Part shown: one piece after another, positions 15,495 to 22,794 of the stretch
Position numbering within the stretch: the stretch's first letter is position 1
Layout: each line of letters starts with the position of its first letter
From: Escherichia phage vB_EcoM_11B_SA_NWU
Length of the DNA: 64,000 nucleotides
Reading direction: 5' to 3' (one strand)
Sequence record: OR062527
The notes under the pieces: generated by a model
Told to the model about the DNA's origin: nothing
Database searches by the model: none
The model's input: only the letters and a program-made list of their open reading frames with translations
Program-made: the position numbers and the translations under genes

Positions 15495-15560
15495 AGTGCT
15501 CTCCTCTATAAGATAATTCTATTATACCATACTCGTTTTGATATGTAAACCATTTAAATG

Positions 15561-15583
15561 AAAAAGGACTCCCGAAGGAGTCC
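15561..15583 (-). terminator. rho-independent terminator after soc (GGACUCC-UUCG-GGAGUCC then U5)
   Basis: 7-bp GC-rich stem, UUCG loop, UUUUUC on the minus-strand transcript. Confidence 0.65.
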
Positions 15584-15590
15584 TTAAATT

Positions 15591-15827
15591 TTAACCACCT
15601 ATTTCTGTAGGTGTAAACATTGCAGCATTTTTAGTTTTCCAAGTCGCTGCATCGGAAACTACATCAGAATAAGCTGCTTTTTCTGACGGAAAGATTTGAT
15701 AATGAGAATCTGCAATACGATGTTCATTTGAATATACATCAAATGCTACAGAAACTTCCATACCTTTAACTTCTTTGCCTTCACCCGCTGGATGAGTAAA
15801 GGTCTTGATGTTAACGAAACCACCCAT
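15591..15827 (-). CDS. soc: small outer capsid protein Soc (78 aa)
   Basis: Close match to T4 Soc as recalled (VNIKTF...VSVAF...HYQ.FPSEKAAYS); TATAAATA late promoter upstream; terminator downstream. Confidence 0.85.
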   Translation of the reverse strand: MGGFVNIKTFTHPAGEGKEVKGMEVSVAFDVYSNEHRIADSHYQIFPSEKAAYSDVVSDAATWKTKNAAMFTPTEIGG

Positions 15828-15858
15828 AATAAACTCCTTTATTGTTTAATTACAGGTG

Positions 15859-15866
15859 TATTTATA
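15859..15866 (-). promoter_or_regulatory. late promoter -10 element TATAAATA upstream of soc
   Basis: Exact TATAAATA on the minus strand about 31 nt before the soc ATG. Confidence 0.65.
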
Positions 15867-15868
15867 AC

Positions 15869-16009
15869 TTACAATTTAGCTGCTTTCCAGAGTTGTTCAA
15901 TAATCTCTTGGTCTATTTCTTTAGTTATTTCATTACGTAATAAGGCAGTAAGGGCTTTCGCCCTTTTCTTATTCAACTTTTTGAGCTGACGCTTATTTAA
16001 ACGAGCCAT
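15869..16009 (-). CDS. basic micro-ORF (46 aa), soc.x-like
   Basis: Hand-translated MARLNKRQLKKLNKKRAKALTALL...; its ATG overlaps the gene 56 stop (TAATG); GAGGT Shine-Dalgarno. Confidence 0.45.
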   Translation of the reverse strand: MARLNKRQLKKLNKKRAKALTALLRNEITKEIDQEIIEQLWKAAKL

Positions 16010-16527
16010 TAATAACCTCGGTCTTGACGAGCGAAGTTTTCGGCATTTTTCAGATAATAAAGTTTAAAGATTTCTTCAGCTGACATTCCAAGAGCAATAA
16101 ATTTATTCATAAAAAAGTGAAACTGATCAATTAGTTCAAATTTAATTTCAAGCTGATCTTCGGGAGATAAATCTTGAATTTTCTTGGATTGCATTTCGGA
16201 ATAACGTTTCTTCCAAGGTTTCCATACAGCAGAAGCTTCTTTTTCACCATTACTCATACCACCGAGAGAAGTATATAGCTCGCGAGTTTCGTCTGCGATA
16301 TAATCGTCTTGGTTTCGCAGCCAAGCAAGAACTTCTCCTGCAGTTTCAAGTGAATCAGGATGACGATTTGTTTCTGGTTTATCATTAGCCAAACGAATCT
16401 GTAAATGCCGCTGCATATCAAGCATAACCTGCAGTGGGTCAATATTGTGCATAATATTCTCAGCATATGCACGATTTGCTTTATCAACGCCTTCGATCAA
16501 ATGAGCACATTCATTAAAGTGAGCCAT
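16009..16527 (-). CDS. 56: dCTP pyrophosphatase gp56 (about 172 aa; start at internal Met, not the 203-aa track ORF)
   Basis: Sequence from MAHFNECAHL onward matches T4 gp56 as recalled; AAGGAAA Shine-Dalgarno 7 nt before this ATG; MotA-type middle promoter upstream. Confidence 0.85.
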   Translation of the reverse strand: MAHFNECAHLIEGVDKANRAYAENIMHNIDPLQVMLDMQRHLQIRLANDKPETNRHPDSLETAGEVLAWLRNQDDYIADETRELYTSLGGMSNGEKEASAVWKPWKKRYSEMQSKKIQDLSPEDQLEIKFELIDQFHFFMNKFIALGMSAEEIFKLYYLKNAENFARQDRGY

Positions 16528-16561
16528 TATTTTTCCTTTCAATTCATGGGTTAGTAGATTA

Positions 16562-16585
16562 ATTATACAATAAATATATAAAGCA
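16562..16585 (-). promoter_or_regulatory. MotA-dependent middle promoter for gene 56 (TTGCTTTA, 11 bp, TATAAT)
   Basis: MotA box and -10 with canonical spacing about 35 nt upstream of the gene 56 ATG. Confidence 0.6.
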
Positions 16586-16598
16586 ATAAGGAGGACAT

Positions 16599-16799
16599 AT
16601 GGTACAAAAATTAATGGCACTTGTTAATGCCATAAAAGGTAATAAAAAACGTATAGCTTTTACTATTTCTGCTATGGTAGGAATTTTACTCTGGAACTTT
16701 ATTCTATCACCAATTGCAATTGCGCATGGTGTTAATATTCCAGTAGTTACTCTTGATACATTCGTAGATTTAGCATTTGCTTTAGTTGGGTTAATTTAA
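16599..16799 (+). CDS. small hydrophobic membrane protein (66 aa) on the opposite strand, convergent with gene 61
   Basis: Only plus-strand ORF filling an otherwise gene-free gap (16528-16795); AAGGAGG Shine-Dalgarno 4 nt before ATG; two predicted transmembrane segments. Confidence 0.45.
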   Translation: MVQKLMALVNAIKGNKKRIAFTISAMVGILLWNFILSPIAIAHGVNIPVVTLDTFVDLAFALVGLI

Positions 16800-17824
16800 A
16801 TCTTAGCATATTTAGATAGCCGCATTTTAGCCATCAACCCCTGGGCAATATTATTTTTCATATATTCCATAATTTGTTCAGGGGTTGCACCTTCCTTTCT
16901 AATCATATCATTAACATCTTTTGATTTCCAGGGAGATTTATCCCAAAACATAACCCTTTCTCCTGCATCAACTAATTTAGTCATTCGCTTAATAGTGTCA
17001 GGATGACGAGGTTCATTATCTAAGACCCACACACGCCTATCTTTAAATGGAACAACTTCTAGGTCTAATTGACCGCCCGTAATAGCTATACCATTTTCAA
17101 TAAAAAGTGAATCTATAGGTCCTTCTAGAACATATACATCGCCATCTTTAACTCGTTCGACTCCATATATTTTTGTTGCCTCAGGATAAGCTTTAATGGT
17201 GATATATTTTTGAGGAGCATCTTTCTTTAATGCACGTCCTTGAAAAGACTCAGCTTTTCCATTAGCATTATAAATTGGAATAACAAGACGAGGCTCAGAA
17301 ATTTCCTTTTTGTATGTTCCCGGTGCTATGCTATTAACTAATTTAGGCCATTCGGTTGTAAACCAAAGATATTTCCATTTATCCTTTGGAATACAACGAG
17401 CTTTTACATATTTTATAATTGGATGGTCTTCCGCCAGTTTATCTAATCTAACACATGACGGAAGAGATTTAATTATTTTCTTCTCAGGTTGTTTAGGAAG
17501 TTCTTTAGGTTTTTCTACTGGACGACTTTTACCTTTTTCTTTTCTTATTTCAAAGATATACTCACGATATAAATCAGGTTCAAACTCCTTTAAATATATT
17601 CCGATTGGTGCGTGATAGTTACAGTTATAACAATGAATATTTCCTTCATTATTATCACCATAATACCATCCACGAGCTTTATTCTGATCGGTTTTTGAAT
17701 CTCCACAAACGGGGCATCTAAACCGCAATTTAAAAGTTGAACTATTATTTACTTGTGTGAATTTAGGTAAATGAGCCAATGCACGATACGCAAACTCATT
17801 ATCAATCCAAGGTATTGATGACAT
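16796..17824 (-). CDS. 61: DNA primase gp61 (342 aa)
   Basis: Zinc-finger CPVCGD...CYNC; length 342 aa as in T4 gp61; adjacent to the 41 region. Confidence 0.9.
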   Translation of the reverse strand: MSSIPWIDNEFAYRALAHLPKFTQVNNSSTFKLRFRCPVCGDSKTDQNKARGWYYGDNNEGNIHCYNCNYHAPIGIYLKEFEPDLYREYIFEIRKEKGKSRPVEKPKELPKQPEKKIIKSLPSCVRLDKLAEDHPIIKYVKARCIPKDKWKYLWFTTEWPKLVNSIAPGTYKKEISEPRLVIPIYNANGKAESFQGRALKKDAPQKYITIKAYPEATKIYGVERVKDGDVYVLEGPIDSLFIENGIAITGGQLDLEVVPFKDRRVWVLDNEPRHPDTIKRMTKLVDAGERVMFWDKSPWKSKDVNDMIRKEGATPEQIMEYMKNNIAQGLMAKMRLSKYAKI

Positions 17825-17826
17825 TT

Positions 17827-17991
17827 TTACTCTTCTTTTTCTTTAGATTCCTCTTTTTTCTTTTTAGGAATCTGTTCAGGACCTTTATTTACTACAGCCC
17901 CTGACGTTGTTCCAGTAGAGATATTTTCAGGATTACCACCTGAATCTCCAGCGACCATATCTTCTTTAATAAATTCTTTATATGTTTTCAT
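17827..17991 (-). CDS. micro-ORF (54 aa) with capsid-targeting-sequence-like N-terminus MKTYKEFIKE and Lys/Glu-rich tail
   Basis: Hand-translated; AGAGGT Shine-Dalgarno; N-terminus resembles the internal-protein CTS MKTYQEFIAE. Confidence 0.45.
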   Translation of the reverse strand: MKTYKEFIKEDMVAGDSGGNPENISTGTTSGAVVNKGPEQIPKKKKEESKEKEE

Positions 17992-18036
17992 ATTAACCTC
18001 TATTCATAAAAGCATTAAAAATTTGGTCATCAATAG
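17989..18036. repeat. direct repeat copy 1 (about 48 bp, roughly 94% identical to copy 2)
   Basis: catattaacct(c/t)tattcataaaagcattaaaaatttg...caataga spans the 61.1-like C-terminus, stop, ribosome-binding site and next ATG. Confidence 0.7.
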
Positions 18037-18349
18037 ATGGCGCAGTAATATTTTCTGCATCATTTAGCAAATCATTAATTTCATCAGATAGCATAACACA
18101 TGTACCTTTATTTCCTGTAATTGTTACTGCACAATTACGAACGTTTTCTTTATCAAATTTTAGGTTAATATTTTCGTAGTGAAAATCCTTTAATGCCGAA
18201 TATATCTTTAAAATGAAATTGTCTTTTACTACAATAAACCCAACCTCACTATTAAAACGCGGTTCATGGAAACTGTAATAAACCTTTTCATCTATAAAAT
18301 CGTATGAAATTTTTTCCATTTTTAAATATGAAAATTCAGAACTATACAT
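17993..18349 (-). CDS. 61.1-like protein (118 aa)
   Basis: Minus-strand ORF; C-terminal 14 codons and the downstream junction duplicated at the end of the next gene. Confidence 0.55.
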   Translation of the reverse strand: MYSSEFSYLKMEKISYDFIDEKVYYSFHEPRFNSEVGFIVVKDNFILKIYSALKDFHYENINLKFDKENVRNCAVTITGNKGTCVMLSDEINDLLNDAENITAPSIDDQIFNAFMNRG

Positions 18350-18394
18350 ATTAACCTTTATTCATAAAAGCATTAAAAATTTGATCGTCAATAG
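18347..18394. repeat. direct repeat copy 2
   Basis: Same junction module at the 61.2-like C-terminus. Confidence 0.7.
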
Positions 18395-18983
18395 AAACTT
18401 TTACTTTAGGCTGTTCTTCAAACGGTAATTCATATCCACATATTACAATTTTGTGATCGATACCAAAATACACAGAAGCAATATTATTAATATTATTTTC
18501 AGTGAAATCTAAATCAACATCAATATCTTTTTGACTAACGCTCAAAGGATAATTAATACGAATAATTCGATTATCTTTAACAAAGATTCCACCGACATAC
18601 TCTGTGCTGCGTTTAAAGTTTACACGTTTCCTAAATGAAAAATATTCAGGTTCTTTATGGGCTCGACTCATAGGACTTAAAGTGTATTCCGAATATGAAA
18701 TATCAAATCCTACACCTTCAATATGAGCCAAAGTGTCATGATTAAACCAATTATAATCGTATGCCAAATCCATTAAATTGTAATATGTGAAAGGCACCGG
18801 ATTAACATCATATGTTGTACCTTTAAAATCTGCCCAGGCAACGATTTCGTTATCTTTAACAATTACAAAAATTGTGCCAATAAGATATCCACGGTTATTT
18901 TCATCAGGCGTTATATTATAACATTGTGCATCAGGAAATTTACCGTATTTAAACGGTGGATTTTTGTGCATATAATAAATCAT
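18351..18983 (-). CDS. 61.2-like protein (210 aa); position of T4 anti-DarT factor AdfA
   Basis: Synteny between 61 and sp; C-terminus IDDQIFNAFMNKG shared with the 61.1-like ORF. Confidence 0.5.
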   Translation of the reverse strand: MIYYMHKNPPFKYGKFPDAQCYNITPDENNRGYLIGTIFVIVKDNEIVAWADFKGTTYDVNPVPFTYYNLMDLAYDYNWFNHDTLAHIEGVGFDISYSEYTLSPMSRAHKEPEYFSFRKRVNFKRSTEYVGGIFVKDNRIIRINYPLSVSQKDIDVDLDFTENNINNIASVYFGIDHKIVICGYELPFEEQPKVKVSIDDQIFNAFMNKG

Positions 18984-18984
18984 A

Positions 18985-19278
18985 TTATTCGCCTGTGATT
19001 TCGGTTACGATATTTTTGTTATTAAAGTTTTTATCGCAATACAGAACATAATTATACTGCATTACTCCACCAGATTTAAGCTGTTTTTGCACTTCGGCTT
19101 TCATTTCAGGACGATCGCGCTCAACAATATTCATAATATCTGCTTCAATCTGGGTTTCAACCTCAGTCTGATCTGCAGTCATAGACCATTCACACAAATC
19201 TTTATCATAACCTGCCATAGCAGGCTGAGCAGCACAAGAAGCTAAAGCAAAAATTGTAGCAAAGATAAATTTTTTCAT
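18985..19278 (-). CDS. sp: Spackle periplasmic protein (97 aa)
   Basis: Signal peptide MKKFIFATIFALASCAAQPAMA; 97 aa; synteny with T4 61.3/sp; early promoter upstream. Confidence 0.8.
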   Translation of the reverse strand: MKKFIFATIFALASCAAQPAMAGYDKDLCEWSMTADQTEVETQIEADIMNIVERDRPEMKAEVQKQLKSGGVMQYNYVLYCDKNFNNKNIVTEITGE

Positions 19279-19299
19279 GATAATCTCCTCAGTAGTTTA

Positions 19300-19336
19300 T
19301 GTTTATATAGTATCTCAATTTCCAACAAAAGTAAAC
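19300..19336 (-). promoter_or_regulatory. T4-type early promoter upstream of sp
   Basis: GTTTACTTTTGTTGGAAATTGAGATACTAT. Confidence 0.55.
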
Positions 19337-19338
19337 AG

Positions 19339-19596
19339 TTATTTTAAAACTTCTGCGTAATCACATGTTACAAACTGTTTCTCTAGCTTGGCGATTTTAC
19401 GAAAGTATCTTTTACATTGACGAATCTGTCGCTTAGTAGGGCGCACAGCAAACTTAATAAATTCCACTCGACCAAATGGAGGACTTTCTTCTGTTGGAAT
19501 ATCTAACACCAATTCCCACGTATCTGCAATAAGTGCTTTGAATTGAGTATTTTTTCTGACACTATACGGAGTAGGCTTAAATAAAACTATATGCAT
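19339..19596 (-). CDS. 61.4-like small basic protein (85 aa; TifA position)
   Basis: Internal ATG 1 nt after the dmd stop with a GAGGA Shine-Dalgarno; adjacent to dmd as T4 61.4. Confidence 0.5.
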   Translation of the reverse strand: MHIVLFKPTPYSVRKNTQFKALIADTWELVLDIPTEESPPFGRVEFIKFAVRPTKRQIRQCKRYFRKIAKLEKQFVTCDYAEVLK

Positions 19597-19597
19597 A

Positions 19598-19780
19598 TTA
19601 TCCTCGGCAATCTGCTTCACACACTTTCTTGTCATCAATGAAAGCTTTAACTAATGCTTTATTAACTTCAGCATATTGAGTAGTAGCCCATTGAACGTCA
19701 TCTTTCATCATTGTGGTTTCTTTAGTAAACATGCTTTCATTCTTAAACCACCCCATAAAAACTACCTTTACCAATTCCAT
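19598..19780 (-). CDS. dmd: Dmd antitoxin (discriminator of mRNA degradation), 60 aa
   Basis: 60-aa sequence MELVKVVFMGWFKNESMFTKE... matches T4 Dmd (61.5) as recalled; early promoter upstream. Confidence 0.85.
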   Translation of the reverse strand: MELVKVVFMGWFKNESMFTKETTMMKDDVQWATTQYAEVNKALVKAFIDDKKVCEADCRG

Positions 19781-19804
19781 AACAATCTCCTCATTTAACC
19801 AACA

Positions 19805-19839
19805 AGACTACTATACCATAGTCTTGTCAGCTTGTAAAC
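19805..19839 (-). promoter_or_regulatory. T4-type early promoter upstream of dmd
   Basis: GTTTACAAGCTGACAAGACTATGGTATAGT; -10 between CAAGACTA/TAGTCTTG inverted repeats. Confidence 0.55.
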
Positions 19840-21266
19840 TAAAATTTTAATTCATTTGCCAAAGCATCTAACTGAGCTCGAGCTGATTCGTTTCTTTGAT
19901 AGCGATTCTGTTCAGCCTGAATCTGTTGTGAACCTGCTACTTCACTCACTTCAGTTGGAGTAGAATCTTGTTCAATTTCTACCCATTTCTGATTTCCTTT
20001 TTGAACACCCATCAAAAACTTATTCCACTTATTCTTATCACCATATCGTGATTTGATTTGCTTAATGAGTTGTTGTTCAGCAGCTGCTAACTCTTCAGTT
20101 TCAATGACCGCAAGCATAAAATCAGCTGTTGCTGGAAGACCAGCAGATTCTGCGATATCACTCATGTTAACATCAGAAGAGTCCCAAGCTTGTTTACCAA
20201 CCTGTGCTGCAGTCCAAAGAACAGTTTCGGTTTCAACAGCCAGAGCACGTAATTCCTCTGCAATAGCTTTAACAGTTGTGTAACTATTTTCTGAATAAAC
20301 TCTAATGCGGCAAGATTTACAAATACCTAGATAGTCGACAATAATAATTGTTGGAACAAAATTCTTTTTGAGCTTCAATTCATTCAAGAGAGACCTGAAT
20401 GTGTTAGCATCTGCCCCACCAGTGGGATACTGTTTAACGATTAAACGACCGAGGGTAGATTTCTCACGCCATTTTTCCATTTTTCCTTTATACTCAGCGT
20501 AAGAAATATGTCCATCATCAATATCATCAAGAGAAACATCGAGCATATTAGCATCAATACGTTTAGCGCAGACTTCTTCTGCCATTTCCATAGAGATATA
20601 AAGAACGTTATGACCAAGCTGCAAATAATCTGCTGCTAATGAACAAAGTCCTAATGATTTACCAACGTTAACGCCAGCCATTAAAACGTTCAGTGTTCCT
20701 GTCTCAGCTCCGCCTTTAGTAATTTTGTTTAGAATTCTGAGTTTAAATGGAACTTTACGAGCTTTATTCATATAAGATAGCCAGCGTGCTTCATAGTCAT
20801 CCATCCAATCATGACCAACGTAGCTATCAAATGAAATTGATAATGCTTGACGCATGATGTCAGGAATAGCACCAACATCCGGCATTTTCTTATTTCGTTT
20901 TTCTGGAGGAAGCTCAGCATTAGTTTGAATTTCAATTATTTTAGACGTAGCATTAAACATCGCCCTTTGCTGAACATATTTTTCTGTTTCTTTTACTAAC
21001 CAGCTGTGGTCTTCTGGAGAATCAGCCAGTTTTGAAATAAGTGTTTTTACACCAGAATATTCTGTTTCAGTAAATGAACTATTTTCTAATGCAACATTTA
21101 ACGCATTAATAGATGGAACGCTATGATACTCATTAACATGAGATTTAATTAATTTGAATGTATTTTTAGCTGGACCACTTTCAAAATATTCTGAATCCAT
21201 ATATGGCCAAACTTTTGAAAAATAAGCTTGATCAAATATGAGATGAGAAAGAATAATTTCTACCAC
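19839..21266 (-). CDS. 41: replicative DNA helicase gp41 (475 aa)
   Basis: DnaB-family Walker A GVNVGKS; 475 aa; N-terminus MVEIILSHLIFDQAYF matches T4 gp41 as recalled. Confidence 0.9.
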   Translation of the reverse strand: MVEIILSHLIFDQAYFSKVWPYMDSEYFESGPAKNTFKLIKSHVNEYHSVPSINALNVALENSSFTETEYSGVKTLISKLADSPEDHSWLVKETEKYVQQRAMFNATSKIIEIQTNAELPPEKRNKKMPDVGAIPDIMRQALSISFDSYVGHDWMDDYEARWLSYMNKARKVPFKLRILNKITKGGAETGTLNVLMAGVNVGKSLGLCSLAADYLQLGHNVLYISMEMAEEVCAKRIDANMLDVSLDDIDDGHISYAEYKGKMEKWREKSTLGRLIVKQYPTGGADANTFRSLLNELKLKKNFVPTIIIVDYLGICKSCRIRVYSENSYTTVKAIAEELRALAVETETVLWTAAQVGKQAWDSSDVNMSDIAESAGLPATADFMLAVIETEELAAAEQQLIKQIKSRYGDKNKWNKFLMGVQKGNQKWVEIEQDSTPTEVSEVAGSQQIQAEQNRYQRNESARAQLDALANELKF

Positions 21267-21275
21267 ACTTACTCC

Positions 21276-21638
21276 TTAAAAGAATTTAAACTTTTTCTTT
21301 GACCTTTTATTAAATGCATCTTGTAGTTGCATTGTAATACATTTTTCTACATGAGGAGCTAACTCAGCTTTTCTTTCTTGGTCAAGAACAGCAAAGTCCA
21401 TTACGACTTTTCCATCAACCCAATCTAATTTTGTCACATACACAATGTGTGTAGAACCATCTTCTAGTTTAATGACAATCTCCTGGATAACATTTTCCAT
21501 GGCAGATTTAATTATCTTAAGAGATTCATTAAAAAGACGTTCTTTTCTTTCTTCTTCCCCCTCCGAAGAGGGGGATTCATCGATAATTTCTAGATCTAAA
21601 TCTAAATCATCTTTATTCATTAAATTCTTCCATATCAC
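21276..21638 (-). CDS. gene 40-like protein by position (120 aa)
   Basis: ORF between uvsX and 41 as in T4; start overlaps the uvsX 3' end. Confidence 0.45.
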   Translation of the reverse strand: MIWKNLMNKDDLDLDLEIIDESPSSEGEEERKERLFNESLKIIKSAMENVIQEIVIKLEDGSTHIVYVTKLDWVDGKVVMDFAVLDQERKAELAPHVEKCITMQLQDAFNKRSKKKFKFF

Positions 21639-22794
21639 TTAACTGCTCGAGGTCAGTTTCTAAATCAGCGGCTGATTTACTTTTACTTTCTGGAGATTTA
21701 AATTTTTCAACCTTTGAGTTAATCAATTCATCAACTTCAGCTTCAACAATTTCATTACTATCAATAGCACCTAATTGATAAGCACGTTTAATAGCATCTC
21801 GGAATGGTTGATGCTTAAATAAAGGACCCCAGAATGTAGTGCAATTGGTATCTTTTGCACGCCAAGATTTTTCTTCGCGAATCATCTCGCCGGTTTCTTC
21901 GTCAAGAAATTCACGAGCATACCAACCATTCTTAGGTTTTACTACAAATCCTAATTCTAGAGCCATATCTAACAATCCAGAATAAGGATCGATACCACCG
22001 TCAAATTTAACATCAATAAAGAATTTACTTTTTTCTTTAACGGTACGAGATTTTTCTACATTTAGAACAAATTGATACCCCTGAAGATCAGAACCATCTT
22101 TAATCTGACGTTTACCGATAATGAATACAGTATCAGCCGAATACATTACGCCTGTACCGCCTGTCATCACGGTTTTACTAAACATTTCAATTGTTTCAAT
22201 TGTATGGTTAACCGCAACGCATGGAATATTTTTAATGCTAAAGTAAGGAGTAACAATACGGAATAATGACTTCAGTGATTTAGCACGAGTCATATCTGCC
22301 ACAGATTTTTCATTCAAGGCATCTTCAGTTTCTTTCTTAGAAGCCATATTACCGATTGAGTCGATGAATACAATAACTTTTTCACCGCGCTCAATAGCTT
22401 CAAGCTGATTCACCATATCAATTTTCAGCTGTTCAACTGACTGAATTGGCGTATGAATTACTCGTTCCGGGTCAACTCCCATGGATCGCAAATAAGCTGG
22501 AGTAATACCAAATTCGCTATCATAGAATAGACAAACCGCGTCAGGATATTTGTTCAAATACGCCGCAACCATAGTCAAAGACATATTTGATTTAAAGTGC
22601 TTAGAAGGCCCTGCGAAAATAGTTAAACCAGACTGCATTCCACCATCAATCGCACCTGAAATAGCGATATTAAGCATTGGGATTTTTGTACGGATTACAT
22701 CCTTTTCATTAAAGAATTTAGATGTAGTCAGTTCAGCAGTCATTTTAGAAGTGGAAGCTTTAATCAAACGGGATTTTAAATCTGCAATAGACAT
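21613..22794 (-). CDS. uvsX: UvsX recombinase (393 aa), RecA-like
   Basis: RecA fold motifs (GPSKHFKS); near-identity to T4 UvsX as recalled; synteny. Confidence 0.9.
   Translation of the reverse strand: MSIADLKSRLIKASTSKMTAELTTSKFFNEKDVIRTKIPMLNIAISGAIDGGMQSGLTIFAGPSKHFKSNMSLTMVAAYLNKYPDAVCLFYDSEFGITPAYLRSMGVDPERVIHTPIQSVEQLKIDMVNQLEAIERGEKVIVFIDSIGNMASKKETEDALNEKSVADMTRAKSLKSLFRIVTPYFSIKNIPCVAVNHTIETIEMFSKTVMTGGTGVMYSADTVFIIGKRQIKDGSDLQGYQFVLNVEKSRTVKEKSKFFIDVKFDGGIDPYSGLLDMALELGFVVKPKNGWYAREFLDEETGEMIREEKSWRAKDTNCTTFWGPLFKHQPFRDAIKRAYQLGAIDSNEIVEAEVDELINSKVEKFKSPESKSKSAADLETDLEQLSDMEEFNE

Follow-up and report, generated by a model that had tools for sequence, protein, structure and literature searches.

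The closest described relative of the locus analyzed here is the anti-toxin-antitoxin (anti-TA) island of phage T4, a concept that comes with the assignments of tifA to gene 61.4 and adfA to gene 61.2 (Srikant, Guegler & Laub 2022, eLife, PMC9391042). In T4, an early promoter drives dmd-tifA, and another promoter has been reported downstream of tifA (Srikant et al. 2022, PMC9391042). We analyzed the corresponding interval of Escherichia phage vB_EcoM_11B_SA_NWU (sequence record OR062527) in a window of 64,000 nucleotides (nt), which is the whole stretch of DNA analyzed and to which all positions refer. The interval, 17825-19838, is exactly the gap between the start of the primase gene 61 (17824) and the stop of the helicase gene 41 (19839), and comprises 2,014 nt of a Tequatrovirus T4-like coliphage. 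We consider it very likely that this interval corresponds, in its Tequatrovirus form, to the published anti-TA island of T4 and is organized as two early transcription units on the minus strand.

Several products of such loci have been characterized. TifA binds ToxN and RNA, and the RNA binding is necessary for ToxN inhibition (PMC10853763). Spackle, a periplasmic protein, inhibits the tail lysozyme gp5 and in this phage group mediates the exclusion of superinfecting phages (PMC7677548). In AdfA, His at residue 164 enables the binding of DarT1 and Arg prevents it (PMC11825919). DarT1 binding and rescue on DarTG1 cells are known just for RB69 (R164H) and, weakly, for the T4 allele, and the main anti-DarTG1 factor of T-even phages is AdfN (gp30.3), which is encoded elsewhere (PMC11825919).

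The block contains six open reading frames (ORFs), all on the minus strand, with products of 54 to 210 amino acids (aa):

17827-17991, minus strand: gene 61.1, 54 aa
17993-18349, minus strand: orf118, 118 aa
18351-18983, minus strand: adfA (61.2), 210 aa
18985-19278, minus strand: sp (61.3), 97 aa
19339-19596, minus strand: tifA (61.4), 85 aa, ATG at 19596
19598-19780, minus strand: dmd (61.5), 60 aa

Five of these ORFs are of T4 type, with amino-acid identities to T4 of 96% (61.1), 74% (AdfA), 95% (Sp), 95% (TifA) and 97% (Dmd). The PHROG matches of the block genes were consistent with the Pfam assignments, and all were well over threshold for the five T4-type ORFs. The gene order agrees with the annotations of T4, T2 and RB69, and one close relative is annotated at these positions with 'anti-DarT factor A', 'protein spackle' and 'antitoxin Dmd'. 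The best nucleotide match of the block was phage JK1 (98.3%, megablast). The same search with 17825-19838 returned 664 phage records, nearly all from T4-like coliphages, 121 of which carry the whole block.

A sequence-only reading of the window, made by a model from the letters and a list of ORFs, had placed six genes for small proteins between primase 61 and helicase 41, and its boundaries proved exact. Its assignments of Dmd, Spackle, 61.4/TifA, 61.2/AdfA and 61.1 were each verified by sequence. It had named a lack of similarity of the 61.x ORFs to TifA and AdfA as the outcome that would count against it; the similarity is clear, with 95% identity to T4 TifA and 462 bits against Pfam AdfA. 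The sixth ORF, which that reading had left without a name, is an AdfA paralogue. Plus-strand ORFs within the block were rejected as genes, since the longest had 52 aa and all were without support.

The spacing between the genes of the block is 1-2 nt, the exceptions being two gaps of ~60 nt, one upstream of dmd and the other upstream of sp. These two gaps suggest two transcription units, each preceded by a putative promoter:

19810..19838, minus strand: putative early-type promoter of the dmd-tifA unit, TTTACA-17-TGgTATAGT, 10/12 consensus, extended -10
~19307..19336, minus strand: putative promoter of the sp-adfA-orf118-61.1(-61) unit, GTTTACT-17-TACTAT, then TATAAACA, 8/12 consensus

Upstream of dmd the sequence reads GTTTACA-17-TGgTATAGT, then GAGGAG, then ATG. 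The upstream end of this promoter abuts the stop codon of gene 41 (19839-19841), and the promoter region differs from that of T4 by 1 nt. Direct reading of the sequence after the sp promoter showed TATAAACA and GAGGAG, and the region of this promoter is 100% identical to T4 over 73 nt. A generic sigma-70 scan gave 28 promoters against 22.9 expected from shuffled sequences, and was thus not enriched overall. The assignment of the promoters is therefore based on the identity to T4 and not on the scan. Two early promoters had been proposed from the sequence only; conservation and the literature support both as promoters, whereas the scan lends no enrichment and the early class of the second one comes from the T4 literature.

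The two units would act as follows. In the first, dmd-tifA, Dmd would bind and block the RNase toxins RnlA and LsoA, and TifA would bind ToxN together with RNA and thereby trap the toxin. The second, sp-adfA-orf118-61.1, probably reads on into gene 61. Its exported Spackle would inhibit the gp5 lysozyme of a superinfecting phage, AdfA would bind a DarT-type ADP-ribosyltransferase, orf118 would represent a stand-alone copy of the AdfA C-terminal domain, and 61.1 would add a conserved small protein. All of these activities are predicted from homology and from published experiments with T4, T2 and RB69.

The dmd gene is the first gene downstream of gene 41, lies behind the putative early promoter and is co-operonic with 61.4 as in T4. 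Its product gave 151 bits with Pfam PF17587 (cut-off 27, residues 1-60) and matched PDB 5hy3_B, 'Antitoxin Dmd', with an E-value of 3.3e-36. As many as 58 of its 60 residues are identical to T4, the substitutions being I22T and V56A. From this 97% identity alone, Dmd is predicted to bind and neutralise the RnlA and LsoA RNases.

For tifA, the program-made ORF list had taken an upstream TTG overlapping dmd as the start of 61.4; the T4-equivalent start is the ATG at 19596, which gives a protein of 85 aa. This protein is identical to T4 TifA at 81 of the 85 residues and gave 71.9 bits with Pfam DUF7279 (cut-off 24.5). Residues K55, R56 and R59 are all present (...RPTKRQIRQ...); K55A R56A R59A is the published RNA-binding-deficient TifA construct (PMC10853763). 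Residue 41 is Phe, the weak allele of wild-type T4, in place of the Ser or His of the strong inhibitors: TifA with 41S or 41H inhibits ToxN more strongly than TifA with F41. The F41 residue bears on the potency of TifA, not on its family membership. For wild-type T4, amplification of tifA is needed to escape restriction by toxIN (PMC9391042), and the TifA proteins of T2 and T6, which are >96% identical to T4 TifA, neutralise ToxN. [quoted passage not shown] In the Gaprivervirus EAWsc9 (L006 2367-2708), the slot that tifA occupies after dmd in T4 is taken by a protein of 113 aa, one segment of which weakly resembles Dmd (Pfam Dmd E 0.0017, ...NYNALVEAFVDDK...). This protein may be a paralogue of Dmd instead of TifA.

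Spackle gave 153 bits with Pfam T4_Spackle (PF25676) and matched PDB 6x6o with an E-value of 2e-60. It is identical to T4 Sp at 92 of 97 residues, and the five substitutions are K53E, I91V, A92T, V94I and V95T. The signal peptide, residues 1-22 (19213-19278; MKKFIFATIFALASCAAQPAMA), was assigned by comparison with T4 and the PDB entries and is the same as in T4. The mature crystallised chain 7cn6_A aligns to Spackle residues 23-97, as expected if the signal peptide of 22 residues is cleaved after AMA. By homology, the Spackle of this phage would inhibit the gp5 lysozyme. The sequence-only reading had listed it, as a secreted superinfection-exclusion protein, in an anti-defence block; superinfection exclusion is not an anti-defence activity (PMC7677548).

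The last gene of the block, 61.1, encodes a Gly-rich protein of 54 aa with a charged tail, which matched phrog_1823 at 7e-34 and is 96% identical to T4 and 100% identical to T2. It has been catalogued as a conserved ORF without function (PMC1524935), and in view of its conservation across genera, a role as a rapidly evolving anti-defence gene is unlikely. In a comparison with a Gaprivervirus, the core of 61.1, EDMVAGDSGGNP..GTTSGAVVNKGPEQIP, showed 72% identity, against 61% for the adjacent primase.

AdfA gave 461.7 bits with Pfam AdfA (PF23813), with residues 1-210 on profile positions 1-211, that is, over the full length. It is 74% identical to T4 gp61.2 and 83% identical to RB69 AdfA, and the AdfA proteins of JK1 and JK38 are 100% identical to it. 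Sequence searches of the PDB gave no meaningful match for AdfA, orf118 or TifA, and a search of NCBIfam with all six block proteins gave zero matches. In the 5' part of adfA (nt 31-240), the nucleotide identity to the Mosigvirus RB69 is 80-100% and that to T4 is 46-73%, whereas the 3' part is closer to T4. The genes that flank the block show just 74-86% protein identity to RB69. An RB69-like 5' part in such a setting suggests inter-genus recombination within adfA. The nucleotide comparison thus points to a mosaic allele that resembles RB69 on the 5' side and T4 on the 3' side. In the AlphaFold2 (AF2) model of AdfA (mean predicted local distance difference test, pLDDT, of 72.5), two meander-helix units are seen, and the specificity residue is located in the helix 162-173. 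An internal tandem duplication in AdfA was considered and rejected as weak: BLASTP of the N-terminal half against the C-terminal half gave no match, and the sole likeness was the order of secondary structures in the AF2 model.

The residue at the specificity position is encoded here as follows:

18483-18485, minus strand: codon 167 of adfA, AAT (Asn), in the alignment column of RB69 R164 and T4 H165

AdfA of this phage therefore has Asn where the DarT1-neutralising variants have His. This residue weakens the claim that the protein neutralises DarT1, not its membership in the AdfA family. Among the representatives of clusters at 90% identity, the column holds mostly His, with Arg in the RB69 type. 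Asn recurs in phage Lutter (one other substitution) and in 7 of the 15 listed members of the phage's own AdfA cluster. It is not among the alleles described in the later AdfA-DarT1 literature, in which we found no functional test of it.

It is close to an even call, but slightly less likely than not, that AdfA-N167, like RB69 R164, does not bind the studied E. coli DarT1 and is tuned to another DarT or target. In the reported assays DarT1 was bound with His alone and not with Arg, and the residue here is Asn. The published authors proposed that inactive AdfA variants target other DarT homologues, and the presence of the Asn allele in several phages means that it is not a private defect. On the other hand, Asn is not among the published alleles discussed and could be permissive, and outside this position the protein most resembles RB69 AdfA (83%), an efficient DarT1 binder once His is present. 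For resistance to DarTG1, AdfA-N167 is probably not decisive, because this resistance rests on AdfN in T-even phages.

The orf118 gene has no T4 counterpart and was found in ~300 phage records, including T2 (97.5% identity). Its product matched phrog_4122 and gave 31.9 bits with Pfam AdfA (cut-off 27), on profile positions 113-211 only. In BLASTP it aligned with AdfA residues 111-210 at 37% identity (E 6e-11), and its residue N72 falls in the column of AdfA N167. At this column, the orf118-type proteins have mostly Asn, with His in P0064 and Asp in Gaprivervirus-like forms. The two-domain architecture of AdfA, with ~210 aa, is not shared by orf118, which has 118 aa and consists of a single beta-meander-plus-helix domain and the shared tail. 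In the AF2 model of orf118 (pLDDT 80.7), five strands form a meander, residues 67-78 form a helix, and another, short helix lies at the C-terminus. Judged by its alignments, orf118 is best named an AdfA-like paralogue, corresponding to the C-terminal half of AdfA, and not AdfA.

A profile search among 1.84 billion representative proteins found 10 members, all of them AdfA or orf118-type proteins or fragments, the orf118 type being recovered at 4.5e-36. This fact suggests that the family is restricted to T4-like phages. A bacterial origin of the AdfA family was considered, and none could be proposed, since the search returned only such proteins or fragments. The ratio of nonsynonymous to synonymous substitution rates (dN/dS) of orf118 against T2 was 0.09. 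This value indicates purifying selection, and orf118 is therefore not a pseudogene.

A direct repeat of 49 nt, with two copies of 94% identity, brackets orf118 exactly, and its spacing of 358 nt equals the orf118 unit:

17989..18037, no strand assigned: repeat copy 1, covering the 3' end of orf118 (SIDDQIFNAFMNRG) with its stop codon and the start codon (ATG) of 61.1
18347..18395, no strand assigned: repeat copy 2, covering the 3' end of adfA (SIDDQIFNAFMNKG) with its stop codon and the start codon (ATG) of orf118

The repeat comprises the codons of the 14 C-terminal residues (SIDDQIFNAFMN[RK]G) and the stop codon, together with the ATG of the gene that follows. The DDQIFNAFM tail is common to all AdfA-like proteins and follows the pattern [SD][IV]DDQIFNAFM[NK][RK][GD]. 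Among the proteins encoded between sp and 61.1, at least three size classes end in this tail, namely AdfA with 208-216 aa, the orf118 type with 117-122 aa, and a class of 145-167 aa that occurs in other T4-like genera; the tail proteins are found singly or in tandem. In IMG/VR, the tail motif occurred in 16 stretches only, most of them on contigs of T4-like size (~116-172 kb).

The DNA of the tail is near-invariant, synonymous sites included, between genes with 37% protein identity and across genera. The tail DNA of T4 adfA is identical to that of orf118 and not to that of adfA in this phage, as would be expected if the two repeats had recombined and orf118 had been lost in this way. The tail also carries a MotA-box-like AATGCTTTTA, followed after 12 nt by TAATAT, and the record of phage Lutter has a 'promoter' annotated at both homologous tail places. 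A literature search found no published evidence for a middle promoter before 61.1/61. The shared tail could be a recombination junction, an embedded MotA-type promoter, or both.

That the tail is conserved as DNA in either of these roles, and not for the function of the protein, is a serious candidate with somewhat less than an even chance. The conservation of synonymous sites across genera and across genes of 37% identity argues for it, as do the resemblance of AATGCTTTTA-12 nt-TAATAT to a middle promoter with a MotA box, the promoter annotations in Lutter, and the fact that the tail DNA of the gene preceding 61.1 is identical across the Tequatrovirus loci compared, whether this gene is a T4-type adfA or orf118. 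Against it, RB69 has TGCATTT in place of TGCTTTT, the AF2 models of both AdfA and orf118 show an amphipathic helix at the tail, at lower confidence, and a transcription start at the tail would fall within the downstream ORF.

The sequence-only reading had described conserved flanks around a fast-evolving cargo. In relative terms this is correct: dN against T4 was 0.002-0.003 for genes 61 and 41 and 0.014-0.028 for dmd, tifA, sp and 61.1; for adfA it was 0.07 over the part that could be aligned. The word fast-evolving is too strong, however, since dN/dS against T4 was 0.21 or lower for all genes and 61.1 is conserved across genera. Compared with RB69, the island proteins showed 56-68% identity and the flanks 74-86%; compared with a Gaprivervirus, the island proteins were about as conserved as the flanks. 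The number of genes in the gap is 5 in T4, 5 in T2 (a different set), 6 in this phage, 8 in EAWsc9 and 11 in RB69, including imm and imm.1. The main variability lies in gene content and in the mosaicism of adfA. The further proposal that the alleles here set which defences are evaded has published support in residue 41 of TifA and residue 164 of RB69 AdfA, but in T-even phages the adfA allele does not correlate with DarTG1 sensitivity.

It is possible, although rather unlikely, that the block is an ordinary plastic region of early accessory genes, in which the clustering reflects tolerance to insertion between replication genes and not a shared function. The gene content of the gap does vary among T4, T2, RB69, EAWsc9 and this phage, and in RB69 the same gap holds the superinfection-immunity genes imm and imm.1 and five ORFs without T4 counterparts. 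Spackle acts on the superinfecting phage and not on host defence, and 61.1 is more conserved than the primase in the comparison with the Gaprivervirus (72% vs 61%). However, experiments have demonstrated anti-toxin activity in the families of three of the six genes (dmd, tifA and adfA), and a fourth gene is a paralogue of adfA. Moreover, the pairing of dmd with tifA and the neighbourhood of sp and adfA are retained across genera.

Several other points weigh against interpreting the block as an anti-TA island. Every activity is assigned by homology to proteins of other phages. Spackle and 61.1 are not anti-defence genes, so that the term 'island' overstates the functional unity of the block. 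The second promoter is a weak match to the consensus (8/12), and the class of both promoters would follow from the T4 literature. AdfA is 74% identical to T4 and has Asn, not His, at the sole known switch position for DarT1 binding. In T-even phages, the presence or allele of adfA is uncorrelated with DarTG1 sensitivity, and T4 deleted for adfA is without a phenotype (PMC11825919). T2, in which orf118 is present and adfA is absent, turns DarTG1-sensitive upon deletion of adfN; despite its orf118, the studied DarT1 would thus not be neutralised by this protein at native levels. With these points taken into account, we still regard the anti-TA island as a very probable interpretation of the block as a whole.

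A further reading concerns the adfA-orf118 part of the island. AdfA, orf118 and the tail proteins of 145-167 aa may make up a single phage-restricted family, whose toxin-binding cassettes are interchangeable and are swapped by recombination at the 49-nt junction, with orf118, AdfA-N167 or both neutralising a toxin other than DarT1 (e.g. DarT2) and the R164 column serving as a shared specificity switch. The RB69 R164 column holds His, Arg or Asn in AdfA and Asn, His or Asp in the single-domain paralogues, and no counter-defence of T-even phages against DarT2/DarTG2 is known so far. We consider this reading improbable as a whole. It is very unlikely that orf118 is a decaying leftover of an adfA duplication without a function of its own: it corresponds to no more than the C-terminal half of AdfA, T4 does not have it, and it could be deleted precisely through the 49-nt repeat around it, but it is intact as an ORF of 117-122 aa in ~300 phage records and in other genera, has a dN/dS of 0.09 against T2 and a confident compact AF2 domain (pLDDT 80.7), and is retained by T2-type phages that are without adfA.

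The anti-TA island is flanked by two replication genes:

16796..17824, minus strand: gene 61, primase, 342 aa, 99.4% amino-acid identity to T4 gp61
19839..21266, minus strand: gene 41, replicative helicase, 475 aa, GTG start, 99.6% amino-acid identity to T4 gp41

The GTG start of gene 41 at 21266 is that of the ORF call, and an identical alternate GTG start is explicitly annotated in the relative KRT47. On the other side of the primase, the interval 16528-16795 has merely 268 nt; in T4, the corresponding place between genes 56 and 61 is occupied by the gene of the dam methyltransferase. The same short interval without dam is present in RB69, KRT47 and Ec_O157kw. A plus-strand ORF for a hydrophobic protein of 66 aa (16599-16799) lies in the interval between genes 56 and 61 and overlaps the 3' end of the primase gene by 4 nt; its labels in relatives differ, being hypothetical, predicted membrane or holin-family protein. 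A search of 15500-22000 against Rfam found no RNA families.

The locus itself is already known: the island has been published, and the exact arrangement of six genes is present in more than 100 deposited genomes. The mildly new points are leads and not results, namely the mosaic AdfA-N167 allele, the single-domain AdfA paralogue and the invariant tail junction. The practical value lies in annotation, since most relatives in GenBank label at least four of these genes 'hypothetical'. For this phage, TifA F41, AdfA-N167 and the extra AdfA-like gene yield testable predictions of host range. Of more modest import, orf118, the shared variable column, the mosaic adfA and the invariant tail could point to candidates for the anti-DarTG2 activity of T-even phages, and the DNA-invariant tail around the cassettes could point to a simple mechanism of cassette exchange.

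Compared with the T4 anti-TA island, dmd-tifA(61.4)-sp-adfA(61.2)-61.1 (PMC9391042), the block of this phage has the same position, gene order and strand. The promoter regions are identical or 1 nt off, and the small proteins are 95-97% identical, AdfA excepted. This phage adds orf118 between adfA and 61.1, and its AdfA differs from T4 AdfA (74% identity) in having an RB69-like N-terminal half and Asn for His at the specificity position. The T2 locus, dmd-tifA-sp-orf118-61.1-61, shares orf118 at 97.5%, 61.1 at 100% and dmd, tifA and sp at 95-98% identity; T2 is without adfA, whereas this phage has both adfA and orf118. RB69 AdfA, for which the R164H escape allele has been described (LeRoux lab, PMC11825919), is 83% identical at the amino-acid level and up to 100% identical at the nucleotide level in the 5' part, and shares the architecture and the tail. 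The residue 164 column holds Arg in RB69, His in the RB69 escape mutant and Asn in this phage, and the RB69 gap adds imm, imm.1 and another five ORFs that have no counterpart in T4. The nearest matches are JK1, JK38, Lutter, teqdroes and ~120 other Tequatroviruses in GenBank, which carry the whole block at 97-98% identity with the same six genes and point differences only, and in most of whose records at least four of these genes are annotated as hypothetical.

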